A program made the position numbers and the translations under genes. Of a stretch of DNA of 64,000 nt, positions 44,675 to 62,270 are shown piece by piece. Positions within the stretch are counted from its first letter, which is position 1; each line of letters opens with the position of its first letter. The stretch spans positions 1,981 through 65,980 of the forward strand of contig CASTST010000001.1 of NCBI GenBank assembly GCA_949451655.1. The letters are read 5' to 3'. A model generated the notes under the pieces. It did not search any database. It saw nothing but the letters and a program-made list of their open reading frames with translations, and was not told the origin of the DNA. This stretch comes from an uncultured Eubacteriales bacterium. Its GTDB lineage: Bacteria; Bacillota; Clostridia; Oscillospirales; CAG-272.

Positions 44675-45097
44675 AAAAGCCCCCTTATCGGATGGAACCA
44701 ATATAAAAAGGCATCCCCCAGTAAAGGGTGCCTTCAAAAACATACCAAGCCTCCTTTGTGCAAAAGGAGGTGGCACAGCGTAAGCTGTGACGGAGGAATT
44801 GTCTCGCACATATCGCCGATTTGTAGTTTCTGCAAAATGATAGAATTACAATCCCTCAGTCTCCGCTGCGCGGATCCAGCTCCCTTTGCACAAGGGAGCC
44901 TTTTTAATGGGGGGCGCTACGTGACGCTCCCTAGGATTCGCATAGCGGATCCTCACATGGGAGCCTTTTTGCGGGTACCGCTTCACGACATCTTCCTTTA
45001 CTGGGGGTGTCTTCAAAAAAACATACTTTAAGGCCCCCTTTGCACAAGGGGGCCTTATAACGTGGGTGCTATGTGACAGTTCCCTTTGCCAGGGAAT
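44675..45097 (+). repeat. Mosaic hairpin-repeat array R16 (1 unit)
   Basis: Core at 44795-44855 (F). The unit at 44749-44905 is a clean exemplar, and its core plus left arm nearly match the copy at 1300-1384. Confidence 0.9.
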
Positions 45098-45123
45098 TTA
45101 TAAAATAAACGCGTGACTGCGTG

Positions 45124-46044
45124 TTACAGCACAAACAAACGTATCGGTTTGATTGCACTGCCCTTTTCCGGATATTCCCGTACTTCTCCCAATGCAAAAA
45201 ACGTATCATTTTGATAGATCCGTACATGCGTTCCAAGCTGGAAATCTGTTTTCAGCTTCCATTGATACAGTTCTGTACCTCCACGGATTAGCTTTGCCTG
45301 AAAATCGTTTACGTGTATGGAAGGACAATCTGCAAATAAGGATTCACAGGGGCGCACCATAGCAATCCGTTCTTCTATTGTTGCAGCTTCCAGTTCTTCA
45401 ATCGTGTGTGCATGGGTTAAATCGTACAGACCGGATCTGGTACGGCGCAGCGCCGCCATAACTCCGCCGCAGCCAAGTTTATCTCCAATATCTGCGCATA
45501 GTGTACGTATATAAGTTCCTTTGGAACATGCAACGTTCAGTTTATAGGTTTTATCTGTTAGCTTTTCCACATCAATTGAATCAATATGTATGGGTCGGCT
45601 TTCCCGCTCAATTATCTCTCCCTGACGGGCTGCGTCAACGAGCTTCACCCCGCCTACTTTGATTGCACTATACATAGGGGGCATTTGCATGATATCTCCG
45701 ATAAAGGTGGATATAACAGAACGCACGGTATTTTCATCGGGAATAAGGTTTGTTTCAGATAAAATTTCTCCAGTGATATCTTGAGTATCTGTAGTCATTC
45801 CAAGCTGCAGTATCGCTTCATATTCCTTATTATTGGATAGGAGAAATTCGCTGGCTTTGACTGCTCTGCCAACCAGAACGGGCAGTACGCCGGTGGCAAG
45901 GGGATCCAATGTTCCTGTATGTCCTACACGGGGCGTATCGTAAAGTTTTCGCAGAATTTGCACGATACGATGGCTGGTAACGCCTTCATGCTTATCAATG
46001 ATAATTACACCGGACACAATGTCCGGTTTGTCTCTTCGTTTCAT
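45124..46044 (-). CDS. truB: tRNA pseudouridine(55) synthase
   Basis: Inner ATG (MKRRDKPDIVSGVIIIDKHEGVTSH...) overlapping the nrnA stop (ATGA). Catalytic GTLDP motif. Confidence 0.92.
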   Translation of the reverse strand: MKRRDKPDIVSGVIIIDKHEGVTSHRIVQILRKLYDTPRVGHTGTLDPLATGVLPVLVGRAVKASEFLLSNNKEYEAILQLGMTTDTQDITGEILSETNLIPDENTVRSVISTFIGDIMQMPPMYSAIKVGGVKLVDAARQGEIIERESRPIHIDSIDVEKLTDKTYKLNVACSKGTYIRTLCADIGDKLGCGGVMAALRRTRSGLYDLTHAHTIEELEAATIEERIAMVRPCESLFADCPSIHVNDFQAKLIRGGTELYQWKLKTDFQLGTHVRIYQNDTFFALGEVREYPEKGSAIKPIRLFVL

Positions 46045-47102
46045 ATATTGTTTTCTTTCATATATAAATTTATTGGATCTGCAAAAGCAGCTACAACCTT
46101 CTCTGCCGCTTCTTCGCATGAAGACGCTGTTATAGCGGCACCGGCTGCTCGTTTGTGTCCGCCGCCGCCAAACTTTGATAAAACTGCGGCAACATCAATA
46201 TCACAGTTGGATCTGGCAGAAATTTTAAAGGTGCCCGGGTCTGTTTTGCTTTCTTTTAAAGATAATCCGACCAATACGCCCGAAACGGAACGGGGGATGT
46301 CCACCATTCCTCCAAAATCAAAGTCAGATAAACCGTTTTCCGCAGGCAAAGATGCAGAAATGCATACATAAGCCAATATATTGTCATATGCAAGGTGCAG
46401 GCGTTCTATTACCAATTTTTGTGCCTGTAATTCCTGCATGGTACGACACCCGTGGAGACGATGGGCAATGCTTGCAGGATCGCCACCTCCATCGTTGGCG
46501 TGATTGATGGTTTCAACAAGAGCCGCACCGATGCGGAAGGTTTCCGGCGTGGTATTGCTGTATTGGAAGGAACCTGTATCTGCAGAAATAGCAGCGTATA
46601 TTGCACGGCAGACGGAAGGATTTTCCGTGATTTTTTCTCTTTGCATCAATTCCTTATATATAGCAAAAATCAGTTCTCCTGTGGCGCTTGCATTTGGCTG
46701 TAAACAATAGGAAGAAAAAAGAGTGCAGTTTCCATGATGATCTATGGAAAGGGTTACCTGGTCTGCAAGATTGGATAAACGACCGAGCTGTGTAGGAGAA
46801 GCAACATCTATAGACCAGATATAGTCATAGTCTTTTTCCATATTTTCCGTATATTCAATGGAAGTTTGTCCGTCCAGCAAAAAGCGGAGGTATTCCGGCA
46901 CATCTGATGTGCAGGCGCAATGCGCAGTACCGCCCATAAGTGTATATATTTTGCGCAGTGCAAATGCGGAACCTACCGTATCCCCGTCCGGATTTACATG
47001 ACAAAGAAGCAGCAGTTTTTTATCGGATTTTATATATGCTTCCAGCAGGTTGCATACTTCCGATATGTTAAGCTGTAAAAAATTTGAATTGTTCTGTATC
47101 AT
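46041..47102 (-). CDS. nrnA: DHH-family phosphoesterase (NrnA-like)
   Basis: 353-aa ORF with DHH motifs (HVNPDGD, DHHGN) and the DHHA1 GGGH motif. ATGA overlap with rbfA. Confidence 0.85.
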   Translation of the reverse strand: MIQNNSNFLQLNISEVCNLLEAYIKSDKKLLLLCHVNPDGDTVGSAFALRKIYTLMGGTAHCACTSDVPEYLRFLLDGQTSIEYTENMEKDYDYIWSIDVASPTQLGRLSNLADQVTLSIDHHGNCTLFSSYCLQPNASATGELIFAIYKELMQREKITENPSVCRAIYAAISADTGSFQYSNTTPETFRIGAALVETINHANDGGGDPASIAHRLHGCRTMQELQAQKLVIERLHLAYDNILAYVCISASLPAENGLSDFDFGGMVDIPRSVSGVLVGLSLKESKTDPGTFKISARSNCDIDVAAVLSKFGGGGHKRAAGAAITASSCEEAAEKVVAAFADPINLYMKENNI

Positions 47103-47488
47103 GCGTTATCCTCAGATTCTGTTTCTTCCGGATCGCTGAAAGTGAGATTGTTGATTTTTGCAGCGATGTCTACACCTCTGCGCAAAGAGTCATCTAATAT
47201 AAAGGATAATTCCGGCGTAATGCGCAGGTTCAATCGTTGTGCCAACTGGCTGCGTATAAATCCGGCGGCGCTGCGCAGTCCCTGTGCGAGTTCTTTCATT
47301 TCTTCCGGTGTTGCATTATCGGACAATGTGGAATAAAAAACTTTTGCATATTTAAAGTCCGGTGTCACTTCCACAGAGGTGACGGTGATAAAAGCGCCGG
47401 AAACCCGGGGATCTTTCACATCCCGGAGAATATCGCATATTTCCTGGCGAGCGGCGTCGCCCACTCTGTGCTGTCTATATTTTCCCAT
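47099..47488 (-). CDS. rbfA: Ribosome-binding factor A
   Basis: Inner ATG (MGKYRQHRVGDAARQEICDILRDVKDPRV...) of ORF 47099..47569. RbfA-like with an acidic tail. Confidence 0.88.
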   Translation of the reverse strand: MGKYRQHRVGDAARQEICDILRDVKDPRVSGAFITVTSVEVTPDFKYAKVFYSTLSDNATPEEMKELAQGLRSAAGFIRSQLAQRLNLRITPELSFILDDSLRRGVDIAAKINNLTFSDPEETESEDNA

Positions 47489-47587
47489 AATATTGGCTCC
47501 ATTTCGGTTATAAGATAAATTGTATATATTATTAGAATGTCCGTATTTAGTATAGCATAAACTGGACAAAAATGGAAGAGGCGAAAA

Positions 47588-47603
47588 TGTTTCACGTGAA
47601 ACA
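47588..47603. promoter_or_regulatory. parS centromere-like site
   Basis: TGTTTCACGTGAAACA is a perfect match to the 16-bp Firmicute parS palindrome. It is intergenic, upstream of rbfA. Confidence 0.85.
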
Positions 47604-47657
47604 TTTTGTAATGATCAGTCTCCCTTGTTGCTGGATTTTGTATAGCACAAATTATAT

Positions 47658-47958
47658 AAAGGCTCCCCTCAGCAAAGGGAGCTGTTGCATCAAATCACAC
47701 CATACTCAAGCCTCCCTTGTGCAAAGGGAGGTGGTTTTTGCTGTGCAAAAACCGGAGGGATTGTAAAGCGATCATTTTGCAGGAATTGCAAATCAACAAT
47801 ATAGCTTTGACAATCCCTCAGTCTCCGCTACGCGAAGCCAGCTCCCTTTGCACAAGGGAGCCTATAAAAGTTGGGCTCCATTGCGACTGCTCCCTTTGAT
47901 AGGGGGGAGGCTTTTAACGTGGTGAGGATTCACTGCGCGGCTCCAGCAGAAAGGAGTC
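47658..47958. repeat. Mosaic hairpin-repeat array R17 (1 unit with core inverted relative to its arms)
   Basis: Core at 47757-47817 reads GATCATTTTGCAGG...CAAATCAACA (R). The arms are in F layout: GGAGGTGG-hairpin-CCGGAGGGATTGT on the left and ACAATCCCTCAG-hairpin-AGCTCCC on the right. Confidence 0.85.
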
Positions 47959-48010
47959 TTGGAGAGGTGGAAGCTATCCCAGCAAAAAAAGCTTCTGCAC
48001 AGGCAAACGA

Positions 48011-48039
48011 AAAAGAACCGCCATATGGCGGTTCTTTTT
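48011..48039. terminator. Bidirectional intrinsic terminator after cysS
   Basis: AAAAGAACCGCCA-TA-TGGCGGTTCTTTT, a 12-bp stem with A/T runs on both sides, 7 nt from the cysS stop. Confidence 0.85.
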
Positions 48040-48045
48040 ACTGTT

Positions 48046-49464
48046 TTATTTTTTCAGCTTAAATGTAGTGCCTTGTGCGGTATCTTCTAAAATAACGCCC
48101 TGTTCCAAAAGTGCGGCACGAATTGCATCCGCTTTTGCATAATCTTTATCCTTCTTTGCAGCAGAACGAAGAGCAATTTGCTCCTCAATCTGTGCAATCC
48201 ACGCAGGATCTGCATTTTCCAATGCATTCGCTTCCCGGATTTTTGCAGCGCCTTCGATCAGATTCAAACACAAAACCTGATCAAAGTCCCGGATCAATGC
48301 AAGCTTTGTGCCATCGCTAATGTCTGCTTTCAGCACGTCATACAAAGTTGTGATTGCAAGGGATGTATTCAAATCATTATCCATTGCTGCTGCAAAGGAC
48401 GCTTTGTATGGTTCAGCGGCAGTTCCGTCCGCATGACCGTCTGCAAGCTTTGCAATGTTGCCCAGCAGCTTATCATAAGCAGTTGCAGCGTTGTCCAAAT
48501 TCTCCCATGTAAAAATCAAAGATTTGCGATAGTGGGATTGGAGACAGAAAAACCGATATGCCATCGGATCATAACCTTTGTCCTCCAAAAGGGATACGGT
48601 CAAAAATTCTCCGCTGGATTTGCTCATTTTTCCACTGTTTGTATTGAGATGCAGCACATGGAACCAATGCTTGCACCATTCATGACCTACATATGCTTCA
48701 CTCTGGGCAATCTCATTTGTGTGGTGAGGAAAAATATTGTCTACGCCGCCGCAATGGATATCCAGATATTCTCCCAAATGCTTCATGGAAATGCAGGAGC
48801 ATTCAATATGCCAACCAGGATATCCCAAACCCCAGGGACTGTTCCATTTCAATTCCTGATCGTCGAACTTGGATTTGGTAAACCAAAGCACAAAATCCGC
48901 TTTATTTTTTTTATTATCGTCCTTTTCAACGCCTTCCCGCACACCTTCCTGTAAATCGTCCTCCTGAAAGTTGTGGAAAACATTATACTGGGGAATGGTG
49001 GAGGTATCAAAATATACATTGCCGCCCGCAATATACGCATGACCATCAGCAAGCAGTTTTTTGATAACTTTAATAAATTCGCCAATGCATTTTGTGGCAG
49101 GTTCTACCACGTCGGGGCGGCGAATATTTAATTTTTTGCAGTCATTGAAAAACGCATCGGTATAATACTGGGCGATTTCCAAAACAGTCTTTTTCTCCCG
49201 TTTTGCGCCCTTAAGCATTTTATCTTCGCCGGTATCAGCATCGCTGGTGAGATGTCCAACATCAGTAATATTCATGACCCGTTTTACATCCAAGCCGGTA
49301 TAACGAAGATATTTTTCCAGCACATCTTCCATAATATAAGTGCGCAGATTTCCGATATGGGCATAATGATATACGGTAGGTCCACAGGTATACATAGATA
49401 CCTTGCCGGGCTGACGGGGAACAAAATCTTCTTTTTCACGGGTTAGCGTATTATAAAGCTTCAT
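48046..49464 (-). CDS. cysS: Cysteine--tRNA ligase
   Basis: 472-aa ORF with HIGN and KMSKS motifs. The start overlaps the stop of the upstream CPBP gene. Confidence 0.96.
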   Translation of the reverse strand: MKLYNTLTREKEDFVPRQPGKVSMYTCGPTVYHYAHIGNLRTYIMEDVLEKYLRYTGLDVKRVMNITDVGHLTSDADTGEDKMLKGAKREKKTVLEIAQYYTDAFFNDCKKLNIRRPDVVEPATKCIGEFIKVIKKLLADGHAYIAGGNVYFDTSTIPQYNVFHNFQEDDLQEGVREGVEKDDNKKNKADFVLWFTKSKFDDQELKWNSPWGLGYPGWHIECSCISMKHLGEYLDIHCGGVDNIFPHHTNEIAQSEAYVGHEWCKHWFHVLHLNTNSGKMSKSSGEFLTVSLLEDKGYDPMAYRFFCLQSHYRKSLIFTWENLDNAATAYDKLLGNIAKLADGHADGTAAEPYKASFAAAMDNDLNTSLAITTLYDVLKADISDGTKLALIRDFDQVLCLNLIEGAAKIREANALENADPAWIAQIEEQIALRSAAKKDKDYAKADAIRAALLEQGVILEDTAQGTTFKLKK

Positions 49465-50420
49465 AAGGGATTCCTTTCCGAATGGGGATTTGCATTGATT
49501 TCTGCTTTATTGGATTCTTTTCTGAATATAAAATACATTCCAAACAGGAAAATTGCAATACTAATAAAAAACAGAGAATAAGCCAGCATATCCGTTGTAA
49601 TCAGTGGGGTAAAATAGCTGAAGCAGTTGAATGCAATATGAAAAAGCATAGAAGGGATAATAGATTGATATTTTTCAAATAAAAGCGCCATTAAAAATCC
49701 AATCAAAGAGGCATATACAAATTGCATCCAGTTCATATGCGCAGCACCGAAGATTAAGGCTGACAGGATTTGCGCAGCCATCACAGGCATAGCCCGGCGC
49801 AGGCGGGTATAAATCAATCCCCGGAAAACGATTTCCTCTAAAATCGGTGTAATGATTCCTATGCATAGCACTTCCATGATAAAGTTGCCGCCGCCAAAGG
49901 CAAGGGTATAATACTCACTATTTGCAGCTTCCGCTTCTTTTATAGCGGGAAATAGAATGGTAAGAAGAGAAATAGCAACGACAACAATAATTTGAGCAGA
50001 AGCGCCAAGGGCAAGGGATGCAGTTCCGGCAGATGGGGATATTTTGGCAAAAGAGATTTCTTTTGTAAAACGTTTGCCCCGTAACGTATAAAATAGCAGA
50101 TAGATTAACACAAGAACCAAAGCGGAACAAATAGAAATCAATGCGAAATATTTGGAAAACGTACTCCAGTATACGTGGGAGAAAACGGCTTCATCCGTAT
50201 ATGCGGAATATGGAAGAGATCCCTGCACGCAAAGTGAATAAAGAATAACTACGCCGTTTTGTACTGCAAACATTACTCCATAGATAAACAGTGCATATAG
50301 TATGGAAAGTAAAAAATCGCCTGCGGGAGATCGTTTCGGTTGGGGTGCGCCGCAGTCAGCGCAGAAACGGTCTTTTACCAAAACATTTGGATTTCCGCAA
50401 TAATGACATTTATAACGCAT
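49461..50420 (-). CDS. CPBP-family intramembrane protease with an N-terminal zinc ribbon
   Basis: 319-aa ORF. CHYCGN...CADCG zinc ribbon, multiple TM segments, and EEIVFRG and FGAAH..HIAFN motifs. Confidence 0.8.
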   Translation of the reverse strand: MRYKCHYCGNPNVLVKDRFCADCGAPQPKRSPAGDFLLSILYALFIYGVMFAVQNGVVILYSLCVQGSLPYSAYTDEAVFSHVYWSTFSKYFALISICSALVLVLIYLLFYTLRGKRFTKEISFAKISPSAGTASLALGASAQIIVVVAISLLTILFPAIKEAEAANSEYYTLAFGGGNFIMEVLCIGIITPILEEIVFRGLIYTRLRRAMPVMAAQILSALIFGAAHMNWMQFVYASLIGFLMALLFEKYQSIIPSMLFHIAFNCFSYFTPLITTDMLAYSLFFISIAIFLFGMYFIFRKESNKAEINANPHSERNPL

Positions 50421-50472
50421 AAAATCCCTTCTTCCACAAAATAAAATTTACAATTTTTACCATATCATTGTG

Positions 50473-50890
50473 TTTCCTCAGTAAAGGGAATACATAGCAC
50501 ATGCTTAGACAACCCCTCCGTCAGCATCGCTATGCTCAGCTGACACCTCCTCGGGAGTTCGCGAAGCGAATCTCCTCCACTGGGGAGGCTAAGATTTGGT
50601 GAAGGGCTTTCCAGTAAAGAGAGGAGAAACATCTGCACTGACTTCATAAGGCGCCCCCCAGCAAAGGGAGCTGGCACGGTACAAGCTCCACCTTCCTTTA
50701 TAGCCTCCCTTGTGCAAAGGGAGGTGGGTTTTGCGCAGCAAAACGCGGAGGGATTGTATGCATGTACTGTCAACTTGAAGATTATTAAAAATGAAAGTAG
50801 AAACAATCCCTCACCCGCTTCGCGGGAGCTCCCTTTGCACAAGGGAGCCTTATAAAAGTAAATGCTACGTGATAGTTCCCTTTGCAGGAG
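50473..50890 (+). repeat. Mosaic hairpin-repeat array R18 (1 unit plus 1 partial unit)
   Basis: Core at 50750-50810 (F). A partial copy in R orientation at ~50490-50550 retains ~15 nt of core plus one arm (ACAACCCCTCCGTCAGC..GCTGACACCTCC), related to the arm at 41185-41222. Confidence 0.85.
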
Positions 50891-50966
50891 ACTGGGTATG
50901 GCAAAATCTCTGCCGTTATTCCCTATATAGTAGCATAGCACTCCTATGAAGGTATCCCATAAACCT

Positions 50967-51689
50967 TTACTTCTTACCTTCTAATTCTGCAAGCCGCTGT
51001 TCCAGCGTCTGCAGGCTGTGCCGTACAGAACACAGCTCCTGTGAAACCGGGTCAGGAATGTGCACCTGATCCAAATCAATGGGATCTACTTTGTTCCCGT
51101 CTCTGCGTACCACATGGGCGGGAATACCCACAGCTGTACAATTTTCCGGCACAGGACCGAGTACCACGGCGCCGGCTGCGATTTTTGCACCGTCACCAAC
51201 CGTAAAGTTTCCAAGCACCTTTGCCCCTGCACCTACCATTACGTTATTTCCAAGAGTAGGATGACGCTTTCCGGTGTCTTTTCCGGTACCGCCCAAAGTC
51301 ACACCCTGATACAAGGTGCAGTTGTCGCCTATAATTGTCGTTTCGCCGATTACAACACCACTGCCGTGGTCGATAAACAAACCGTGCCCGATGGTTGCAC
51401 CGGGATGAATTTCAATTCCTGTAAGAAAACGTGCAGTTTGGGATATAAAACGTGCGCTGGTATATTTCTTTTTTCGGTATAGCCGATTGGACATGCGATA
51501 TGCAAGCAGGGCGTGGAATCCGGAATAAAGCAACGCAGCTTCCGCGCGGCTTTTTACAGCCGGGTCACGGTCGCAGATTGCATCCACATCCCGCCGGGTT
51601 TCATTTACAAAATTCTGTACGCCCCGGCTGATAGATCCGAAAGACTGATCCCATGCTTTTTTGTTTATTGTAATTTTGATTTTACCCAT
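50967..51689 (-). CDS. cysE: Serine O-acetyltransferase
   Basis: 240-aa ORF with a SATase N-domain (DRDPAVKSRAEAALLYSGFHAL) and hexapeptide repeats. Confidence 0.92.
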   Translation of the reverse strand: MGKIKITINKKAWDQSFGSISRGVQNFVNETRRDVDAICDRDPAVKSRAEAALLYSGFHALLAYRMSNRLYRKKKYTSARFISQTARFLTGIEIHPGATIGHGLFIDHGSGVVIGETTIIGDNCTLYQGVTLGGTGKDTGKRHPTLGNNVMVGAGAKVLGNFTVGDGAKIAAGAVVLGPVPENCTAVGIPAHVVRRDGNKVDPIDLDQVHIPDPVSQELCSVRHSLQTLEQRLAELEGKK

Positions 51690-51763: not shown

Positions 51764-52633
51764 TCATTCCTGCGGTGCGGCTGTATTTCCGCCGGCAGTG
51801 TCTGCCTGTACGATTAAACCGTCTTCAAAATAGCCAGTGTAGGTTCTGCCGTCCGGCCAGGTATAGGTTCCCTGCCCCCACAGGGTGTTATTCTGAAATT
51901 CCCCTGTATATACCTCTCCATTGGGCCAGGTGTAGGTTCCCTGTCCCCAGCGCTGATCTGCAAGAAAATCTCCTTCATAAACGCCGCCGTCTGCGTATTT
52001 GTATATGCCTTTTCCTTCTTTTGCGCCTTTGACATAGGAGCCTTCATAGGACGCGCCATCCGCCATGGTATGCACGCCTTCCCCGTCCTTTAAATCGTCC
52101 TTGAAGGAGCCGGTATATACGCTTCCATCCGCCCAGGTATACGTTCCTTGCCCGGATTTGTTGCCGTTTTCATATTCACCGTCATATATATCGCCGTTTG
52201 CAAAGGTAGTCACGCCGTGACCGTGCTGCCGGTCCTCATAAAATTCCCCTTCATAAATGTCTCCATTCTCCCGGGTCAGCTTGCCGGTTCCATGCTTGAC
52301 GAGATGCTTAACTTCCCCTTCATACACATCCCCGTTTGAATATTCCAATATCTTATTTTCTGCGTCATATGTGGCGGTAAGCCCTTTTACCGCGCTGTCT
52401 CCGCCATAAGAGATATGTCCGGTGGCAGGCATGCCGTCACTATTTAAAACGCCGACAAAGGATACGGAAAATCCGGTGTCAAAGCGGTATTTAACATATC
52501 GGATCCCAAAAAGATATAAAATCCCTACGATCAGCAGAATGCTCACCAATATAGAAACGCCGATAATAATGAAGTTGGTGCGGGTTTGAAAGCCGGTTTT
52601 CATTTTGCGTTTATTTTGTTTGGGCTGGGACAT
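51764..52633 (-). CDS. Membrane-anchored MORN-repeat protein
   Basis: 289-aa ORF with GGAG RBS, one N-terminal TM segment, and about 8 YEGE/YxGxxxxGxxxGxG MORN repeats. Confidence 0.8.
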   Translation of the reverse strand: MSQPKQNKRKMKTGFQTRTNFIIIGVSILVSILLIVGILYLFGIRYVKYRFDTGFSVSFVGVLNSDGMPATGHISYGGDSAVKGLTATYDAENKILEYSNGDVYEGEVKHLVKHGTGKLTRENGDIYEGEFYEDRQHGHGVTTFANGDIYDGEYENGNKSGQGTYTWADGSVYTGSFKDDLKDGEGVHTMADGASYEGSYVKGAKEGKGIYKYADGGVYEGDFLADQRWGQGTYTWPNGEVYTGEFQNNTLWGQGTYTWPDGRTYTGYFEDGLIVQADTAGGNTAAPQE

Positions 52634-53736: not shown

Positions 53737-55023
53737 TCAGTCTTTCTTCAGAATATCCGTACCAAGATACTTTTGTAAAACCTCCGGCACAGAGACGCTG
53801 CCGTCCGCATTCTGATTCTGTTCTACGATTGCGGGCAGGATGCGGCTGGTTGCCAGACCGGAACCGTTCAATGTGTGTACAAATTCCGTTGTATTGCTGC
53901 CGTCCCGCTTGAAACGGATGCTTCCCCGGCGCGCCTGATAATCCCGCGCATTGGAAACAGAGGACACTTCTTTATATCCGTCCATGGAAGGAATGTGGAT
54001 TTCAATGTCATATGTCCGTGCCATAGATGCGGAGCAGTCTGCTGCGGCAAGCTTCACGGTGCGGAAATGGAATCCCAGACCCTTTACCAGCGCTTCCGCT
54101 TTTCCTACCAGTTCTTCAAAAGCTGCGTCGGAATCCTCCGGACGGGTGTACTGTACCATTTCAACCTTGTTAAACTGATGTCCCCGTACCATGCCCCGTT
54201 CATCTGTCCGGTAAGAGCCGGCTTCCCTGCGGAAACAGGGTGTGTAGGAGATATATTTCCGGGGCAGATCTGCCTCGGTGAGAATTTCATCCCGATGGAG
54301 GGATACAAGAGCAGTTTCTGCGGTAGGCAGCATGAACCGGCGTCGCTCATCCTCCGCAGTTTCCAGCCAGTATACTTCATCCTTAAATTTCGGGAACTGA
54401 CCTGCGGTAAGTCCGCATTCGTAGCCCAGCATATGGGGTACCAGCACCAGCTCATATCCATCGGAAAGGTGGGTGTCAATAAAGTAGTTCAGCAGTGCCC
54501 ACTCCAAGCGTGCACCCATTCCGCGGTAAATCCAGAATCCGTTTCCGGACAGCTTTGTTCCCCGCTTATAGTCGATCAGTCCCAGATCGGTACACAGATC
54601 TACGTGATTTTTCGGTTCAAAATCAAAATGATGAGGCTCGCCGAAATAGCGGATCGGTTCGTTGTTCTCTTTTCCGCCGGGCGCCAGATCCGGATCCGGC
54701 AGGTTGGGCAGTCCCAGCAGCAGATTGTTGTATTCTGCTTCCACCTGTGCCAGCTTTTCATCGTTCGCTTTAATCTGTGCGGACAGCTCTTTCATAGCTG
54801 CAAAAATGGGAGAGGGATCCTTTCCCTCTTTTTTCATTTGAGGGATTTGCTTGGTGGCGCGGTTCTGTTCCGCTTTTTTTGCTTCATTCTCGCTTATCAT
54901 TTCCCGACGGCGTGCGTCCAGTTCTACAATACGCGCAATGTCGTCCTTTGCGTCTGTTCCTTTTGCCGCCAGACGGCGGACAATTTCTTCCGGATTTTCC
55001 CGAATCAGTTTAATGTCCAGCAT
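53737..55023 (-). CDS. serS: Serine--tRNA ligase
   Basis: 428-aa ORF with AGGAG RBS, an N-terminal coiled coil and class II motifs. Confidence 0.96.
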   Translation of the reverse strand: MLDIKLIRENPEEIVRRLAAKGTDAKDDIARIVELDARRREMISENEAKKAEQNRATKQIPQMKKEGKDPSPIFAAMKELSAQIKANDEKLAQVEAEYNNLLLGLPNLPDPDLAPGGKENNEPIRYFGEPHHFDFEPKNHVDLCTDLGLIDYKRGTKLSGNGFWIYRGMGARLEWALLNYFIDTHLSDGYELVLVPHMLGYECGLTAGQFPKFKDEVYWLETAEDERRRFMLPTAETALVSLHRDEILTEADLPRKYISYTPCFRREAGSYRTDERGMVRGHQFNKVEMVQYTRPEDSDAAFEELVGKAEALVKGLGFHFRTVKLAAADCSASMARTYDIEIHIPSMDGYKEVSSVSNARDYQARRGSIRFKRDGSNTTEFVHTLNGSGLATSRILPAIVEQNQNADGSVSVPEVLQKYLGTDILKKD

Positions 55024-55063: not shown

Positions 55064-55936
55064 TTATTCTTCCGTAATTTTCCTGCCGCATACGGTTTCC
55101 AGCAGGGTTTCCAAATCGGTTTCATCAGAAAATTCAATAGATATGGTTTTTCTGCCGCCTTTGGTGGAAATCCGGCACCACCGTCCGGTAAGTCCGGTAA
55201 CCTTGTGCTCCAGCTCTGCTACATAGTTTACCTGCACGCCCGGTTCCTTGGGTGCGGGTGCAGGACGCTGTTTGTTCTGGGCTTTTACGGCGGCTTCCGT
55301 TTCCCGCACGGACAGATTGCGTGCAACAATCCGCTGGGCTAAGGCTTCGATACCGTCTTTGTCCCGCAGTCCCAGCAGTGCGCGGCAGTGCCCCGCAGTC
55401 AGTCTGCCATCCTGTAACATTACCGCAATACATTCCGGCAGATCCAGCAGACGCAGCGAATTGGCAATGGCGCTGCGGGATTTTCCCAGCCGTCCTGCCA
55501 CTTCCTCCTGGGTCAGATCAAACTGGGCAAGAAGGGTTTGATATGCCTGCGCTTCTTCATATGGATTGAGATCCTCCCGCTGGAGGTTTTCGATCAGGGC
55601 AAGCTGCGCGGTACGCAAATCGTCCGCTTCCAGCAGCAGCGCGGGGATTTCCGTCAGTCCTGCCAGCTTGGACGCCCGCCACCGCCGTTCCCCGGCGATA
55701 ATCTGGTACAGTCCATTTTGCCCTTCCCGCACCAGAATCGGCTGAAGCACGCCGTTTGCAGCAATGGAATCTGCAAGCTGAGACAGTGCCTCCGGATCAA
55801 AATGCTGCCGGGGCTGGTCGCTTTTCGGCTCCACCTGAGACAGGCGCAGCTTGATGACGCTGTCCTGGGGCTGATCCGGTGTGTTGTCGGAAAAAATCAT
55901 ATCAAGCCCTCTGCCGAGGGCAGGTTTTTTTGCCAT
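55064..55936 (-). CDS. parB: Chromosome partitioning protein ParB/Spo0J
   Basis: 290-aa ORF with GGAGG RBS. ParB-box (GERRWRAS) and HTH region. Confidence 0.93.
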   Translation of the reverse strand: MAKKPALGRGLDMIFSDNTPDQPQDSVIKLRLSQVEPKSDQPRQHFDPEALSQLADSIAANGVLQPILVREGQNGLYQIIAGERRWRASKLAGLTEIPALLLEADDLRTAQLALIENLQREDLNPYEEAQAYQTLLAQFDLTQEEVAGRLGKSRSAIANSLRLLDLPECIAVMLQDGRLTAGHCRALLGLRDKDGIEALAQRIVARNLSVRETEAAVKAQNKQRPAPAPKEPGVQVNYVAELEHKVTGLTGRWCRISTKGGRKTISIEFSDETDLETLLETVCGRKITEE

Positions 55937-56154: not shown

Positions 56155-56925
56155 TTACAGAACCCGGGAAACCAGTTCCTTTGCAATTTCCATATATGCA
56201 AGGGAGCCTTTTGAATACTTGTCGTGATAGAAAATCGGCTGTCCGAAGCTGGGCGCTTCCGAAAGCTTTACGTTACGCACTACAGGCGTTTTAAACAGCT
56301 TGTCCGCATAGTAGCGTTTCAATTCCGCAAGCACCTGGGTGGAAAGGTTGAGCCGTCCGTTATACATAGTAATCAGAATGCCTGTGATTGACAGAAGGGG
56401 ATTGTATAACTGCTTCACTTTTTTGATAGAGATCATCAGCTGGGACAGCCCTTCCAGTGAGTAATATTCACACTGCATGGGAATCACCACACCGTGGGAA
56501 CAGGAAAGGGCATTTACAGTAAGCATACCCAATGAGGGGGGGCAATCGGTGAAAACAAAGTCAAAATCTTCTCCAACATCGGCAAGCACGCTGCGCAGGG
56601 AGTATTCCCGTTTTTCCCGGTCCAGCAGTTCGATTTCAGCGCCTGCAAGATCCATGGTGGCAGGCAGGAGCCAGAGTCTGTTAAATTGGGTGGGAACGAT
56701 TGCCGCGGCGGGGGAGCAGCCCCCGAGCAATGCGTCGTACATGGAATAGTGCAAAGATTTTTTATTCTGACCTACGCCGCTGGTAGCATTTCCCTGGGGA
56801 TCCAGATCGGCAAGGAGCACGCGGAATCCGAGGCTTGCAACGCAGGCGGCTATATTGACAGCGGAAGTGGTTTTGCCCACACCGCCTTTTTGATTTGCAA
56901 ATGAGATAATAACAGGTCCGCCCAC
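56155..56925 (-). CDS. parA: Chromosome partitioning ATPase ParA/Soj
   Basis: GTG at 56925, 6-7 nt after GGAGG (VGGPVIISFANQKGGVGKTTS...). The longer ORF start (57027) runs into repeat array R20. Confidence 0.9.
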   Translation of the reverse strand: MGGPVIISFANQKGGVGKTTSAVNIAACVASLGFRVLLADLDPQGNATSGVGQNKKSLHYSMYDALLGGCSPAAAIVPTQFNRLWLLPATMDLAGAEIELLDREKREYSLRSVLADVGEDFDFVFTDCPPSLGMLTVNALSCSHGVVIPMQCEYYSLEGLSQLMISIKKVKQLYNPLLSITGILITMYNGRLNLSTQVLAELKRYYADKLFKTPVVRNVKLSEAPSFGQPIFYHDKYSKGSLAYMEIAKELVSRVL

Positions 56926-57022: not shown

Positions 57023-57187
57023 AGCACAGACTAAAAGGCTCCCTTGTGCAAAGGGAGCTGGCTCCGCGTAGCGGAGACTGAGGGATTGTTATACTATCAT
57101 TTTGAATAATCTTCAAATCGGCAGTATGTGCAAACAATTCCTCCGTCTTGCCTTACGGCAAGCCACCTCCTTTTGCACAAAGGAGGC
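57023..57187 (-). repeat. Mosaic hairpin-repeat unit R20
   Basis: Core at 57082-57141 (R). The first ~110 nt, including the 14-nt lead-in AGCACAGACTAAAA, are nearly identical to R21. Confidence 0.9.
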
Positions 57188-57225
57188 TGATAAAGTTCCT
57201 GCGAATTTGAAAAATATCTATTCAT

Positions 57226-57281
57226 ATTTACAACAGATTCGTTGTAAATTCCCGGTGATATATCTCAATACTATTGTAAAT
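57226..57281. promoter_or_regulatory. Candidate operator upstream of the HTH gene
   Basis: ATTTACAAC-N6-GTTGTAAAT palindrome (57226-57249) plus a third half-site ATTGTAAAT (57273-57281). A TGcTATAGT extended -10 lies at ~57303. Confidence 0.35.
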
Positions 57282-57437
57282 GGAATACCTACATATTTTT
57301 TGTGCTATAGTTATACTTGTTTATTGGATCATGTAAATTGTTCTCTATTTTGTCCGTTTTTCATCCCAATGGATCCTGTGCGGAAAAAGACGGAATGTGT
57401 ATAATTTTAGTAAATAACAAAAGATAGGTGGGTGTGA

Positions 57438-57755
57438 ATGGACAGTATAAAATTGGGAATCAAAATCAGAAAATGCAGACAAGCCCGCCATCTAAGTCAA
57501 AATGAATTAGCGGAGAAAGCAGAAATCAGTACAAGATATCTTGGGGATATCGAACGGGGAGCAAAGATTCCAAAACTATCAACTTTCATCAATTTACTGA
57601 ATGCAATGAATGTATCAGCAGACTATGTACTTATGGACGCGTTGCATGTGCAGCAATCGGAATTGGAAGTATCTTTTGAGTATCTTCCGCCGGAAACAAA
57701 AACAAAAATGCTGGATGTTTTGGAGACAATGATCCGCAATTTTGCGAACGGATGA
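57438..57755 (+). CDS. XRE-family helix-turn-helix transcriptional regulator
   Basis: 105-aa ORF. LSQNELAEKAEISTRYLGDIERG is a Cro/C1-type HTH. Confidence 0.85.
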   Translation: MDSIKLGIKIRKCRQARHLSQNELAEKAEISTRYLGDIERGAKIPKLSTFINLLNAMNVSADYVLMDALHVQQSELEVSFEYLPPETKTKMLDVLETMIRNFANG

Positions 57756-58150
57756 GCCACGATCTTATTAAAAAGCAGATTGCTTTCATTGAAGCCTGCG
57801 GGCGGATTGTCCTTCCTCCGTATATATGCAAAACGATGGACTGGGAGCCGGGCATGGACATTATTGCAACCAAAGTAGGTGGGATATTGGTTTTGCAGCC
57901 GGCGGTCCGTCCGAAATGCTGTATTTGCGGGGCGGATTTGCGTGTTAAAAAGCTTCTACATACATACATTTGTCAGGATTGCATTGATCATGGGGATAAA
58001 TACCTGATATGGGAAAAAACGGCAAAGGTATGGGAAGGAAGAGATGACTATGAGGATGAGTGTGTGGAAGAAATAGGAGAGCTCTGCGATTATGGGTATG
58101 ACAATGAAAACGAAGAAGATTATGATAGTGATGCGTTTATGAGAAATTAA
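57752..58150 (+). CDS. AbrB/SpoVT-like domain protein with a Cys4 ribbon and an acidic tail
   Basis: 132-aa ORF overlapping the HTH gene by 4 nt. GRIVLPPYICKTMDWEPGMDII..LVLQP resembles a swapped-hairpin AbrB fold. CCICG...CQDC follows, then an Asp/Glu-rich C-terminus. Confidence 0.6.
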   Translation: MSHDLIKKQIAFIEACGRIVLPPYICKTMDWEPGMDIIATKVGGILVLQPAVRPKCCICGADLRVKKLLHTYICQDCIDHGDKYLIWEKTAKVWEGRDDYEDECVEEIGELCDYGYDNENEEDYDSDAFMRN

Positions 58151-58413
58151 GCACAGACTAAAAAGGCTCCCTTGTGCAAAGGGAGCTGGCTCCGCATAGC
58201 GGAGACTGAGGGATTGTTATACTATCATTTTGAATAATCTTCAAATCGACAGTGTGTGCAGACAATCCCTCCGTGTTTTGCTGCGCAAAACCCACCTCCC
58301 TTTGCACAAGGGAGGCTTTGGTGAGGTGGTAACTTGGTGTGCCACCTCCTTTTGCTAGGAGGAGGCTTTAGTATGGCGGTAGCTGGCGCGTCACTTTCCT
58401 CTACCGGGTGAGC
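58150..58413 (-). repeat. Mosaic hairpin-repeat array R21 (1 unit)
   Basis: Core at 58210-58269 (R). It is a direct repeat of R20 across the right-type arm and core, with a different distal arm (GTTTTGC-TGC-GCAAAAC). Confidence 0.9.
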
Positions 58414-58459: not shown

Positions 58460-59461
58460 TTATTCTTCCGTTTTGTTTGCTTCAGGACGGGGTCCTCTGC
58501 GGCGGCGGTCAACTTTGTCCGCACCTTCGTAGCAAACTACGATTTTGCGGTTTTCATCCCGTCCAACCGAGTGGGTGGATACATTTTCAATATCCTGAAT
58601 TTCAGAGTGGATAATGCGCCGCTCAAAGGGATTCATAGGCTCCAGCACAATATTTCTGCGATATTTCTGTGCTTTTGCAGCTGTCCGACGCGCCAGAGCG
58701 CGCAGAGTTTCCTCCCGCTTGCGGCGGTAATTTTCAATATCTACGATAATCTTTACAAAATCCTTGGAGGTTCCGCCGCCCTTGCGGTGGGTGCAAAGAT
58801 TTACAAGATACTGAATCGCATCCAGCGTTTCTCCATGGTGCCCAATGAGAATGCCCGCGCCTTCTCCGGTGATTTCCATCCGGGGATATGTGTTTCCGCC
58901 AATTCCGGAAGGTTCGTCCTCTACAAATTCTGCTTTTGCGTCAACGCCCATATCGGAAAGAAGCATATTCAAAAAGGACAGTGCGCATGCCCGCTCTTCA
59001 TCGGTGATTTCGATAACTTTGGTTTCTTTGATATTTTTGGCTTTCGGTGCGCTTTCCTGTTTTGCAGCAGGCGCTGCCTCCTTTTTCGGAGCAGGAGCAG
59101 ATTTTGCAGGCTTTGCTGCTTCTTCTGTCTTTACAGGTTTTGCAGGGGCAGCTTCCGCCAGCTTGTCCTTCTTTGGAGCAGCCGGCTTTTTCTGTGCCGG
59201 TGTGCTTCCGTCTCCGCCTTTGCCTGTGGCGACTTTCAGTCCCTTAATAGATGCTACGATGCCGGAAAGATCCGTATCTTCCTCTTCCGGTTCATCGTTG
59301 ATGATTACTTTAATTTTTGCAGGGGAAGCGCCGATTCCGAAGATTCCCTTTTTCGGCATTTCCAAAATCTCATACTGGACATTTTCCCCGCTGTATTCCG
59401 ACTGCGCCTGTGCCATAGCGGCTTCAAAGGTTTTGCCGGTGATAATGATTTCTTCTGCCAT
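58460..59461 (-). CDS. jag: RNA-binding protein Jag/KhpB (Jag_N, KH, R3H) with a Pro/Ala/Lys-rich linker
   Basis: Inner ATG (MAEEIIITGKTFEAAMAQA...). C-terminal KH/R3H region (LEPMNPFERRIIH). Positioned after yidC. Confidence 0.88.
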   Translation of the reverse strand: MAEEIIITGKTFEAAMAQAQSEYSGENVQYEILEMPKKGIFGIGASPAKIKVIINDEPEEEDTDLSGIVASIKGLKVATGKGGDGSTPAQKKPAAPKKDKLAEAAPAKPVKTEEAAKPAKSAPAPKKEAAPAAKQESAPKAKNIKETKVIEITDEERACALSFLNMLLSDMGVDAKAEFVEDEPSGIGGNTYPRMEITGEGAGILIGHHGETLDAIQYLVNLCTHRKGGGTSKDFVKIIVDIENYRRKREETLRALARRTAAKAQKYRRNIVLEPMNPFERRIIHSEIQDIENVSTHSVGRDENRKIVVCYEGADKVDRRRRGPRPEANKTEE

Positions 59462-59508
59462 AACGATCTCCATTTTCAAGCTGTTTTCGGACGACCGCCC
59501 GAAATGCT

Positions 59509-60660
59509 TTATTTCTTTTTATACTGTTTTGTGCCCTTGTCCTCTTTGATCAAAGGGGCTTCGGCGCTGTCCGCCGGGGGCAGTTCCTTTTTCTCTGCCT
59601 TTTCAGCAGACTCTTTCGGCGCGTCCTTCTTGCTGTCGATTGCGGGAGTGCTTTCATCCTCATCGTCAATATGATGGAGGGAGCGTTTGCCGCTGCCGGC
59701 AGGAAGTGTGCCGCCCGGTTTCTTCTTGTTCTTTTTGGACGAGCCGTTCAATTCCCGTTCTGCCGCTTTATAGTCCTCTTCCGTAAAGGTTGGGGGCGGC
59801 ATGATCTTGTACAAAGCCATTTGCTGGAGTGTTGCCGCAATGGAGCGGTAAATCCAGTAGATACCTACAGCAGCAGGCATATAGAAAGAAACATATACAG
59901 AAATCAGCGGTGTGGTGTACATCATAATCTTCATGGAAAGACTATTCTGCTGCGCTTTCGTTGCAGGATCCTGATATGTAAAATGCCGGGTGATGATCTG
60001 GCTTGCGATCATGACAACAAAAATCAGAACCGGAATCAGCACCAGAATAGATGCAAATTTCGGTGCCTGGGACATGTCAAATCCGCCGATTGAGAAGGTG
60101 GGAAGCACGGTAGGCGTTTCCCCGTTTAGAAGCGTATTGACATGTTCGGTTTCATCCTTGTGTTCCAGCAGATACCGCAGGATGTCATACTGCTGGGAAC
60201 GCACATCTTGGGAAATTGCAATCCCCGCGTTTTTGAAGTTTTCGACAATTTTTGCAATCCCGCTGCCGTCAAACCGGCAGATTCCGCAGATATACCGCAG
60301 GGGGTTGACAATCACCTGATACAGTGCCAGAATAATGGGAAGCTGGATCAGCATGGGAAGACAGCCGCCCATGGGGTTGAAGCCGTTTTCCTGATACATT
60401 TTCTGGGTTTCTTCCTGCATTTTCAGCTGGGTTGCCTGGTCCGTGCGACCTGCGTATTTTTTACGCAGCGCAGCAACCTTGGGGGCAAGGGCAGCCTGTT
60501 TCAGGGAGTTTTTGTGGGTGCGGATACCAAAGATAAAGCAAAGCACAAGCTGCACCAGAACGGTGAATACAGCAAGGGCTGCAAGATAGTTCGGGAAGAT
60601 CCAGCAGCAGAACTGCATGAGATACCCGAAGGGGACGATCAGATAATCAAAAAAGCTCAT
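59509..60660 (-). CDS. yidC: Membrane protein insertase YidC with a long Lys-rich C-terminal tail
   Basis: 383-aa ORF with the YidC/Oxa1 core (GGCLPMLIQLPI...). Positioned after yidD/rnpA. Confidence 0.92.
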   Translation of the reverse strand: MSFFDYLIVPFGYLMQFCCWIFPNYLAALAVFTVLVQLVLCFIFGIRTHKNSLKQAALAPKVAALRKKYAGRTDQATQLKMQEETQKMYQENGFNPMGGCLPMLIQLPIILALYQVIVNPLRYICGICRFDGSGIAKIVENFKNAGIAISQDVRSQQYDILRYLLEHKDETEHVNTLLNGETPTVLPTFSIGGFDMSQAPKFASILVLIPVLIFVVMIASQIITRHFTYQDPATKAQQNSLSMKIMMYTTPLISVYVSFYMPAAVGIYWIYRSIAATLQQMALYKIMPPPTFTEEDYKAAERELNGSSKKNKKKPGGTLPAGSGKRSLHHIDDEDESTPAIDSKKDAPKESAEKAEKKELPPADSAEAPLIKEDKGTKQYKKK

Positions 60661-60699
60661 CTTTCAGATTTACCTTTCAGAAGGTTAATACAAGGGCAG

Positions 60700-60939
60700 T
60701 CAGTGTTTCTTTTTCCCGGATTTGCGCACGGGTACAGGATCATATCCGCCCCTTCCCCAAGGATTGCATCGCAGAATCCGCCAGAGGGAAAGCGCAAGAC
60801 CCCGCACCACGCCCCACTCCTCAATGGCAAGAATGCAATACTGGGAGCAGGTAGGGGTAAACCGGCAGCGCGCTGGAAAAAGAGGAGAAAGGAATTTTTG
60901 GTACAGGCGCACCGGCGCCTGAAAAATCTTTTTAAACAT
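60700..60939 (-). CDS. yidD: Membrane protein insertion efficiency factor YidD
   Basis: 79-aa ORF with the YQKFLSPLFPARCRFTPTCSQY motif. Confidence 0.92.
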   Translation of the reverse strand: MFKKIFQAPVRLYQKFLSPLFPARCRFTPTCSQYCILAIEEWGVVRGLALSLWRILRCNPWGRGGYDPVPVRKSGKKKH

Positions 60940-61352
60940 TATTGCCCCGAACCGCTGTGCGGTTCTTTCTGTTTTTGTTGCTGAAGCATGTCAACTTTGC
61001 GCAGGCAGTACTGCAAATCACGCAAAACGTCCTGCATTTTTGAAACCGTGGCGGCATGCCTTGCGGTAATCACCACAAGATAGCCTTTTTTCACACCTAT
61101 TTCTGCGTCTGTCAGTCTGTATGCCTCGCGGATAACCCGCTTGGCACGGTTGCGTTCCACGGCACCTCCGATTTTCTTTGAGGCGGAAATGCCCACGCGG
61201 TTGATCGTTTGCTTCATGGGATTTGCGGCGCGCAGGGCGCGCGCCTTACGGTCGCCCAGGATATATACGCAAACAGTTTTAGCCGCGGCGCGCCTGCCGC
61301 GGGCATATGCTTTCTGGTATAGATGATTTTCGCAAATGGCGATCTGCTTCAC
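60939..61352 (-). CDS. rnpA: Ribonuclease P protein component
   Basis: GTG at 61352, 6 nt after GGGAGG (the ORF track start is at 61385). RnpA-like (VGISASKKIGGAVERNRAKRVIREAYR). TAATG overlap with yidD. Confidence 0.88.
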   Translation of the reverse strand: MKQIAICENHLYQKAYARGRRAAAKTVCVYILGDRKARALRAANPMKQTINRVGISASKKIGGAVERNRAKRVIREAYRLTDAEIGVKKGYLVVITARHAATVSKMQDVLRDLQYCLRKVDMLQQQKQKEPHSGSGQ

Positions 61353-61493
61353 ATCTGACCTCCCGGGTTTGATAAAATCAGACAAAACGCTGTAACAAAA
61401 GAACGCCTCCGAACGATCCGTAGTCCGGATCCAAAGCGGAGGCGGGCGGGGAATCCCCGCTTTTTCTCATGGTAGAGGCTCACAGTGCCCCGT

Positions 61494-61628
61494 TTAGTGC
61501 GTCAGTCTTGCTCTGCCTTTCGCACGGCGTCTTTTCAAAACTTTTCTGCCATCGGCAGTTTTCATTCTTTTACGGAAACCGTGTTCCTTTTTTCTCTGAC
61601 GCTTTTTCGGTTGATATGTCCGGAGCAT
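61494..61628 (-). CDS. rpmH: 50S ribosomal protein L34
   Basis: Not in the ORF track because it is shorter than 60 aa. Minus-strand ATG at 61628 follows TAAGGAGG and translates to [44 protein letters not shown]. Stop at 61494-61496. Confidence 0.95.
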
Positions 61629-61717
61629 ATTTGCACCTCCTTACGGTTTATCGAAATTTTAATTATTTCCTGAAATTTGTTTGGACAACTAAGTCCACAG
61701 ACGCATAGGCAATAATC

Positions 61718-61747
61718 ATTATACATAGAAAGTGGCATATTTGTCAA
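61718..61747 (-). promoter_or_regulatory. Sigma-A promoter of rpmH-rnpA
   Basis: On the minus strand: TTGACA (61742-61747), an 18-nt spacer, then TATAAT (61718-61723) with TG at the extended -10 position. Confidence 0.75.
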
Positions 61748-61843
61748 GGGTTTTCTGAAATTTTACCGGTGTAAAAAGGGATTTTCCGGGAGGGAATCTA
61801 TATGTTGTATTTGGGACTGTGCCAGGGTACAAGAAAAAATATA

Positions 61844-62270
61844 AAAAGGCTCCTCGTGCGATGCTAACCAAACGTAAAAAGTCTCCCCCGGTAAAGGGGG
61901 CGCACCGTACTCCACCAACCTTAAAGCCTCCCAGCAAAGGGAGCTCCCACGGAGCGTCCAAACTTTATAAGGCTCCCTTGTGTAAAGGGAGCTGTCACAG
62001 CTTTGCTGTGACTGAGGGATTGTCTATGCTATCATTTTGAATAATCTATAAATCGGCAATCCACCGAAACAATCCCTCCGGGTTTTGCGTAGCAAAACCC
62101 ACCTCCCTTTGCACAAGGGAGGCTTCAGTTTAGTGGGTGCTTGCATCGGCACCTCCTTTACACAAGGGGGGCTTATAACGTAAGCGCTTGCTCCGCGGGA
62201 CCCCCCTTTTGCTGGGGCTTTTTGTTTGGCGAAAATCGCACAAGGGAGCCTAACGGAGCGAATCCCCTCC
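61844..62270 (-). repeat. Mosaic hairpin-repeat array R22 (1 unit)
   Basis: Core at 62016-62076 (R). Arms are GTCACAGC-TTT-GCTGTGAC and GGTTTTGC-GTA-GCAAAACC, with multiple accessory hairpins on both sides. Confidence 0.9.

Follow-up and report, generated by a model that had tools for sequence, protein, structure and literature searches.

Why do the genes that normally point away from dnaA in Firmicutes lie, in one uncultured clostridial lineage, on the same strand as dnaA and directed toward it? The question is raised by a stretch of 64,000 nucleotides from an uncultured Eubacteriales bacterium of the Oscillospirales lineage CAG-272 (contig CASTST010000001.1 of assembly GCA_949451655.1, positions 1,981 to 65,980), hereafter called the window. 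In the canonical Firmicutes and clostridial origin, as described for Bacillus subtilis and Clostridium difficile, rnpA-rpmH adjoins dnaA-dnaN and the origin is bipartite, with one half (oriC1) upstream of dnaA and the other (oriC2) between dnaA and dnaN (PMC7561715). In the window, rpmH and the genes that accompany it, including parA, parB and truB, form a block of about 17 kb that reads toward dnaA and meets the rightward replication fork head-on. This layout is old, fixed and common to related species, being neither a recent flip driven by repeats nor an assembly error, and it is probably the outcome of a single inversion.

Gene layout and the position of the origin

Gene identities and strands were assigned by searches against NCBIfam and Pfam families, which confirmed every gene named in the original prediction and, with it, the claim that the whole set lies on the dnaA strand with rpmH about 17 kb away (17.2 kb from start to start, both genes being on the minus strand; Table 1). 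Along the direction of transcription, the minus-strand order is rpmH-rnpA-yidD-yidC-jag-parA-parB-serS-188-aa open reading frame (ORF)-MORN-cysE-CPBP-cysS-rbfA-nrnA-truB-dnaA-dnaN-gyrB-gyrA, with a small remA-like ORF on the same strand between dnaN and gyrB. The upstream neighbour of dnaA is truB, and the adjoining, divergent rpmH of the canonical Firmicutes oriC neighbourhood is not found there. The layout mirrors the canonical rpmH/dnaA arrangement, and flipping 44.7-61.8 kb on the map of confirmed genes recreates, as had been predicted, both the rpmH/dnaA divergence and the canonical order. The predicted absence of mnmG, rsmG and noc from the window held as well: tblastn found neither mnmG nor rsmG, and there is no noc because just one ParB-like gene is present.

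Two kinds of evidence place the origin in the dnaN/dnaA spacer, at 42.6-43.05 kb, where it had been expected. The first is the distribution of DnaA boxes, of which this spacer holds 5 exact and 10 near-exact (at most one mismatch) copies of the sequence TTTTCCACA. Two boxes in tandem (42692-42709) abut a trio-like run, CAG AAG AAA CAG TAG (42673-42690), next to which an AT-rich stretch of 40 nt (42633-42672) adjoins dnaN; by analogy with B. subtilis, the run may be read as a DnaA-trio and the AT-rich stretch as a putative unwinding element. The features of oriC2, that is, dnaA-dnaN adjacency together with a box cluster and a putative AT-rich unwinding element in the spacer, are all present. 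A second cluster upstream of dnaA, equivalent to oriC1, is lacking: the dnaA/truB spacer (44471-45123) contains no exact and one near-exact box, and none lies in the dnaA promoter region (44471-44700). The rpmH/glf spacer at the far end of the block is also devoid of boxes, and the remnants of a split origin half that were sought there, upstream of rpmH, were not found.

Related loci bear the same signature. The relatives compared are ranked by their DnaA identity to the window (S90, 90%; S85, 85%; L091, 71%; L102, 65%; L100, 65%; L101, 59%; L001, 49%). In L001, L086, L088, L091 and L100-L102, as in the window, the box cluster is confined to the dnaA/dnaN spacer, with 0-2 boxes in the spacer upstream of dnaA, and even L001, whose gene order is canonical, has no upstream cluster. 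The dnaA-dnaN-gyrB-gyrA side is unchanged across all relatives compared.

The second kind of evidence is compositional. Each candidate origin was evaluated by fitting the coding-strand GC skew of every gene at third codon positions (GC3 skew) to b + a x (co-oriented or not). In the 53-gene set the change point was best placed at 42.0-43.5 kb, with a residual sum of squares (RSS) of 136; an origin at 62 kb gave 196 and a model with no switch 203. The change point stayed there when the set was extended to 61 genes, up to 73.5 kb (149.6 against 210.5 and 220.2). In both fits the switch coincides with the DnaA-box cluster of the dnaA/dnaN spacer. In the 61-gene set, minus-strand genes to the left of 43 kb have a mean GC3 skew of +0.138 and plus-strand genes of -0.042 (p=0.0018), and to the right of 43 kb the sign is reversed (minus-strand genes -0.047, plus-strand genes +0.224; p=0.00014). 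With boxes and skew both placing the origin at 42.6-43.05 kb, the rightward fork does meet the block head-on, as had been claimed.

A different placement would have replication start upstream of rpmH, at about 62 kb, in which case everything from rpmH to gyrBA would be co-directional with the leftward fork and dnaA would lie 17 kb from the origin; a skew switch near that position, combined with the same arrangement in all relatives, had been named beforehand as a finding against the inversion. Transcription does diverge at 62 kb, with rpmH on the minus and glf on the plus strand, the raw cumulative GC skew falls until about 55-56 kb, and the orientation of the repeat copies described below switches at 53.7-57.0 kb. 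This placement is nonetheless very unlikely, since the rpmH/glf spacer has no DnaA box against 10 in the dnaA/dnaN spacer, the strand-corrected GC3 skew fits 62 kb far worse in both gene sets and switches at about 43 kb, and the genes of the block have lagging-like values instead of values near +0.14. The raw minimum at 55-56 kb was discarded as an origin marker because raw skew is confounded by gene strand; the gene-strand term of the fit accounts for it, and once gene strand is included the switch comes to lie at 43 kb.

The same skew values bear on the age of the head-on state. When a gene is inverted, its coding-strand skew stays put until mutation re-equilibrates it. The block genes do not show the leading-strand GC3 values that a recent inversion would have left, their skew ranging from -0.035 to -0.116 (lagging-like) against +0.14 in co-oriented genes. 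Taken from dnaA rightward (n=17, dnaA included), the minus-strand genes average -0.064, a value indistinguishable from that of the other head-on block of the window (-0.066; p=0.93), whereas co-oriented minus-strand genes average +0.138 (p=0.0008). The synonymous sites of the block genes have had time to reach lagging-strand values, and the genes have therefore been head-on for a long time. The value of dnaA itself (-0.12) is lagging-like too, as expected from forks that leave from the dnaA/dnaN spacer, and that of glf, the first gene past the block, is leading-like (+0.215).

The other head-on block lies on the opposite replichore. The original prediction had placed mnmE in a plus-strand block facing the leftward fork, and mnmE is indeed found there, in an all-plus block that carries genes for a U32 peptidase, dut, maf, mreBC(D), PBP2, nth, prmC, leuA/cimA, mnmE, rny and ypsA, with a pooled GC3 skew (-0.075) that is lagging-like. 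The ypsA/rny edge of this block is kept in S90 and S85. Taking both blocks together, roughly two-thirds of the coding bases in the window are head-on.

Conservation in relatives, junctions and repeats

The co-oriented layout is shared by at least three other lineages, two of which were measured at about 75-77% nucleotide identity over the dnaA region. In S90 (GCA_910586545.1 plus Logan and Joint Genome Institute (JGI) assemblies; about 77% nucleotide identity to the window) the order is glf, then rpmH rnpA yidC jag, uvrA acn, glnA pyrG, clpP, and deoC pnp parA parB serS ... cysS rbfA nrnA truB dnaA dnaN gyrB gyrA, with rpmH and dnaA 25 kb apart and on one strand. The glf/rpmH adjacency is common to the window and S90, the part from parA to truB-dnaA is also found in S85 and in a lineage with 96% ParA identity, and the truB-nrnA-rbfA module remains beside dnaA in relatives whose DnaA identity is as low as 59%. 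Farther out, mnmG-parS-rbfA-nrnA-truB-nitroreductase leads into dnaA in L102, rsmG-parB-parS-rbfA-nrnA-truB-nitroreductase diverges from dnaA in L101, in the opposite orientation, and L001 has the canonical jag-yidC-rnpA-rpmH facing away from dnaA. The species-representative genomes, with a best DnaA match of 49%, are too distant for synteny at breakpoint level and served as outgroups only; a metagenome scan with YidC gave 6 loci, of which L094 was informative. The outgroups L001 and L101 still show the other orientation, and the occurrence of the layout in at least three other lineages speaks against its being recent.

A crude count of ORF strands in the 10 kb upstream of dnaA, based on rough ORF calling, gave 100% on the dnaA strand in the window, S90 and L102, and at most 80% in the other 58 loci, 23 of which were at 0%; the count is qualitative only, as L001 scores 0.61 despite its canonical rpmH module. 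The nearest reference metagenome-assembled genomes (L001-L009) are intermediate in this count, which suggests that co-orientation near the origin has been eroded across the broader clade.

Both ends of the block lie in repeat arrays, R16 on the left and R22 on the right, and a block mis-joined at such sites was an obvious concern from the outset, since these repeats occur in many copies and often interrupt short-read contigs. Such an artefact is, however, extremely unlikely, both junctions being reproduced in independent assemblies. Two JGI samples agree over the truB/dnaA junction at 100% identity, the 172.8-kb JGI metagenome contig Ga0080710_1000032 carries the window sequence, and contigs of JGI samples 3300006147 and 3300006217 cross the rpmH/glf junction at 99.99-100% identity; this junction is also crossed in L094, a 93%-identical strain. 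Furthermore, both junctions are present in the repeat-free S90 assemblies (NCBI, Logan and JGI), where the equivalent of the dnaA/truB spacer is a repeat-free 283 bp.

The arrays are built from a quasi-palindromic element of about 165 nt, of which nhmmer found 29 copies in the 64 kb (20 on the plus and 9 on the minus strand), that is, about one per 2.2 kb and in almost every intergenic spacer. The element has four hairpins. H1 and H2, the latter variable, precede a long-range stem (GGAGGGATTGT...ACAATCCCTC) that encloses a 45-nt asymmetric core, and H3, also variable, and H4 come after it; H4 together with the T run behind it looks like an intrinsic terminator. The stems carry compensatory changes, with double changes in 8 of the 29 predicted pairs (one H3 pair is AU in 9 copies, UA in 6 and GC in 6). 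The repeats matched no Rfam family, either when all of the window was searched at the gathering threshold or when the array at 44.6-45.15 kb was searched at E<=1, and no transposase associated with them was seen in the window. ORFs at 50465-50941 (158 aa) and 63537-63947 (136 aa) were rejected as genes, being read-throughs of repeat arrays with no family matches; in S90, the cysE/CPBP spacer, where the window has the former ORF, measures just 23 bp. Copy orientation falls into 6 runs, about 13 being expected (in kb: plus 1-9.5, minus 11.3-17.4, plus 21-29.6, minus 31.2-33.7, plus 34.6-53.7, minus 57-64). It was tried as a marker of replication direction and abandoned, as the runs do not switch at the origin.

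The original prediction saw in these arrays the means of a recombination-mediated inversion, recent or still reversible, between opposed copies at 44.7 and 62.0 kb. The boundary copies are literally inverted relative to each other (plus and minus in the nhmmer search), their core elements having opposite orientations, and abundant quasi-palindromic elements could in principle support recombination. In addition, contigs from 3 of 5 samples end inside the 62-kb array, where an alternative isomer might have shown itself. Yet with 20 plus and 9 minus copies, any random pair would be opposite in orientation about 43% of the time, and six more copies lie inside the block. The boundary copies are neither unusually similar nor recombinant: they share 70.7% identity (280th among 378 pairs; family median 74.5%) and fall in different stem sub-families. 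The contig tips at the array proved to be poly-C junk leading to no other junction, and no assembled contig examined has a dnaA-rpmH junction. The element is present in L094 and, as diverged copies, in S85, but the S90 and ParA-96% loci have no copy in about 240 kb, so that lineages at about 77% nucleotide identity have the layout without the repeats. The shared arrangement therefore cannot be due to the repeats. Together with the lagging-like GC3 skew of the block, this makes a repeat-mediated flip highly improbable.

One inversion or several rearrangements

The layout probably goes back to an ancient and now fixed inversion that turned round the canonical rpmH-...-truB array en bloc, with one break in the rpmH/dnaA spacer. 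In the ancestor of the window lineage and the three other lineages, the inversion would have taken in rpmH-rnpA-yidC-jag-...-parAB-parS-rbfA-nrnA-truB, its second breakpoint lying past truB. The origin of the clade would already have been a single unit in the dnaA/dnaN spacer, with DnaA boxes, a trio-like run and an AT-rich stretch, and it is because the clade has no box cluster upstream of dnaA that a break just there could be tolerated, leaving the origin intact. The flank upstream of dnaA would since have turned into a rearrangement hotspot. The outcome would be about 17 kb of housekeeping genes (25 kb in the sister species) that read toward dnaA, against the rightward fork. Later events would include the relocation of mnmE and the separation of mnmG and rsmG from the array, the entry of serS...cysS into the interval between parB and parS, turnover of the jag/parA junction, and the spread of the 165-nt repeats through the spacers of the window species, in which they would be bystanders. 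Read along transcription, the array still begins with rpmH and ends with truB, just as expected had the canonical array been flipped once. The conserved glf/rpmH and truB/dnaA adjacencies agree with this, as do the orientations in the outgroups, and from all of these we infer both the single event and its polarity.

The main rival is a piecemeal history, in which the parA...truB and rpmH...jag modules reached their positions separately, through several translocations or inversions. It is the less likely account, though one to be taken seriously, and several observations weigh on its side and against a single flip. The jag/parA junction, where a 1.4-kb spacer lies in the window, is occupied by 5 kb in L094 and by about 10.5 kb of mixed-strand genes in S90, so that the block may be composite. 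L101 keeps parB-rbfA-nrnA-truB at dnaA and has its rnpA-yidC-jag-mnmE module about 85 kb away, from which it is clear that several independent rearrangements took place in the clade. L102, where the order is mnmG-rbfA-nrnA-truB-dnaA, lacks an rpmH module over 10 kb, and unrelated genes are found upstream of dnaA in L091 and L100. Other points limit the single-inversion reading itself. Polarity and the single event are deduced from few and distant outgroups. The skew data span about 73 kb of this genome, and the GC3-skew regression in S90 gave a flat RSS, because of too few minus-strand genes, and hence no second fit of the origin position. Finally, the last switch of repeat orientation, at about 55 kb (53.7-57.0 kb), neither falls at the origin nor follows gene strand. 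What tips the balance toward the single inversion is that the order along transcription is exactly canonical, which one flip preserves and separate moves would have to restore by chance, and that the glf/rpmH adjacency is kept in the window and S90.

Two regions of the block deserve separate description. A perfect parS site lies upstream of rbfA (Table 1) and recurs, perfect, at the equivalent place in S90, S85, S96 and L102; it is kept upstream of rbfA in relatives down to 59% DnaA identity, L101 having two copies with one mismatch each. In the related loci, parS was located at 7227 (L086), 5631 (L088), 6442 and 6467 (L102), and 3728 and 3757 (L101). The conserved site marks out parS-rbfA-nrnA-truB as an origin-proximal module, separate from the usual nusA-infB operon. 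The jag/parA junction, for its part, is hypervariable: 1.4 kb in the window, with a small islet between direct repeat copies; 5 kb in L094 (4396-9329), with AraC-family, HEAT-like and YfjL-like genes; and about 10.5 kb in the sister species, with uvrA-acn-glnA-pyrG-clpP-deoC-pnp (S90; L110 11076-21008).

Beyond glf, the window species carries patatin, pfkB, ruvX, SNF, Band7, NfeD, serpin and LysR genes (L115 11626-21095), whereas S90 carries trmD, rimM, radC, DUF2079, tilS and hpt (L110 1-7437). The two sets being wholly unlike, glf is another synteny breakpoint.

Table 1. Coordinates of the features discussed, numbered from the first nucleotide of the window
Feature	Position	Strand	Basis or remark
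Second head-on block, other replichore	14365-34494	+	about 20 kb, all-plus
mnmE	29722-31110	+	inside the plus block at 14.4-34.5 kb
gyrA	35458-38088	-	NCBIfam/Pfam
gyrB	38126-40090	-	NCBIfam/Pfam
dnaN	41403-42569	-	NCBIfam/Pfam
oriC, dnaN/dnaA spacer	42570-43054		DnaA boxes, GC3-skew change point
dnaA	43055-44470	-	NCBIfam/Pfam
dnaA/truB spacer, left junction	44471-45123		dnaA promoter region and array R16
Repeat element in left array R16	44744-44909	+	nhmmer
truB-nrnA-rbfA module	45124-47488	-	transcribed toward dnaA
truB	45124-46044	-	NCBIfam/Pfam
nrnA	46041-47102	-	NCBIfam/Pfam
rbfA	47099-47488	-	NCBIfam/Pfam
parS, perfect TGTTTCACGTGAAACA	47588-47603		just upstream of rbfA, 4.5 kb from oriC
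cysS	48046-49464	-	NCBIfam/Pfam
CPBP protease	49461-50420	-	NCBIfam/Pfam
cysE	50967-51689	-	NCBIfam/Pfam
MORN protein	51764-52633	-	NCBIfam/Pfam
188-aa ORF	52655-53221	-	
serS	53737-55023	-	NCBIfam/Pfam
parB	55064-55936	-	NCBIfam/Pfam
parA	56155-56925	-	NCBIfam/Pfam
Variable islet at jag/parA junction (1.4-kb spacer)	57029-58323		between direct repeat copies
Direct repeat copies flanking the islet	57029-57188, 58158-58323	both -	nhmmer
XRE-HTH gene in islet	57438-57755	+	
132-aa ORF in islet	57752-58150		
jag, yidC, yidD, rnpA, rpmH (canonical "origin" operon)	58460-61628	-	points to dnaA, 17 kb off
jag	58460-59479	-	NCBIfam/Pfam
yidC	59509-60660	-	NCBIfam/Pfam
yidD	60700-60939	-	NCBIfam/Pfam
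rnpA	60939-61385	-	NCBIfam/Pfam
rpmH	61494-61628	-	NCBIfam/Pfam
rpmH/glf spacer, right junction	61629-62375		rpmH promoter region and array R22
Repeat element in right array R22	61963-62130	-	nhmmer
glf (UDP-galactopyranose mutase)	62376-63470	+	first gene past the block
Further repeat copies, examples	1253-1436, 6366-6532		nhmmer

Relation to known systems and biological meaning

The locus retains one side of the canonical origin and departs from the other. As in the canonical arrangement, dnaA-dnaN-(remA-like)-gyrB-gyrA is contiguous, and the dnaA/dnaN spacer resembles oriC2 in its box cluster, trio-like run and AT-rich stretch beside dnaN, oriC2 being the half that C. difficile DnaA melts. 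Unlike in that arrangement, rpmH is neither adjoining nor divergent, and no oriC1 is present. Clostridia have 9-19 DnaA boxes upstream of dnaA, and in C. difficile both origin halves are needed for melting in vitro (PMC7561715); the window and its relatives have 0-2 boxes upstream of dnaA. An exception among clostridia is Clostridium tetani E88, with an uncharacterised gene upstream of dnaA (PMC7561715). The window is similar to this strain in that the rpmH-dnaA linkage is broken and dnaA-dnaN intact; it differs in that the whole rpmH...parAB array has been kept nearby in inverted form, a state common to several species.

Chromosomal inversions anchored at the origin or terminus, the so-called X-alignments, were reportedly described by Eisen et al. 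and by Tillier & Collins in 2000. The inversion proposed here is comparable to these in being large, in having one end close to the origin and in being fixed in a lineage, but classic X-alignments are symmetric about the origin and keep co-orientation, whereas this one is one-sided and leaves every gene head-on. Engineered inversions of B. subtilis, said to have been studied by Wang, Berkmen & Grossman in 2007 and by Srivatsan et al. in 2010, similarly placed essential or highly expressed genes head-on near the origin. The engineered cases are reported to have had slower forks and lower fitness, in contrast to the state of the window, which is natural and stable across species-level divergence. 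As to the repeat, when compared by description it is similar to structured, MITE-like intergenic repeats of the REP/BIME, BOX and Correia/ERIC types in being short, modular, hairpin-rich, exclusively intergenic, high-copy and lineage-specific, and differs from them in its own plan of four hairpins and a long-range stem, its 45-nt asymmetric core and the lack of an Rfam match. The case also carries a caution: where intergenic repeats are ubiquitous, almost any block will be flanked by them, and finding them at a breakpoint says little about what caused it.

A bolder proposition is that the clade dropped the bipartite origin and keeps conserved operons (rpmH-rnpA-yidC-jag, parAB-parS, serS, cysS and rbfA-truB) head-on beside oriC by selection and not by mere tolerance. 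We regard it as rather improbable. If the state were selected, transcription converging on dnaA/oriC might, for example, aid the control of initiation or fork progression, and the locus would stand as a natural exception to the Firmicutes rule of co-orientation between essential genes and replication.

In summary, the locus is a lineage-level departure from the Firmicutes rule, probably brought about by a type of event, a fixed inversion with loss of the rpmH-dnaA linkage, that was already known. It offers a natural and evolutionarily stable case of essential genes that are head-on to replication next to the origin. In these uncultured gut Clostridia, the textbook rnpA-rpmH/dnaA-dnaN layout with its bipartite box clusters fails, which bears on automatic origin prediction and on those coverage-based estimates of growth rate that take dnaA and rpmH as marks of the origin.

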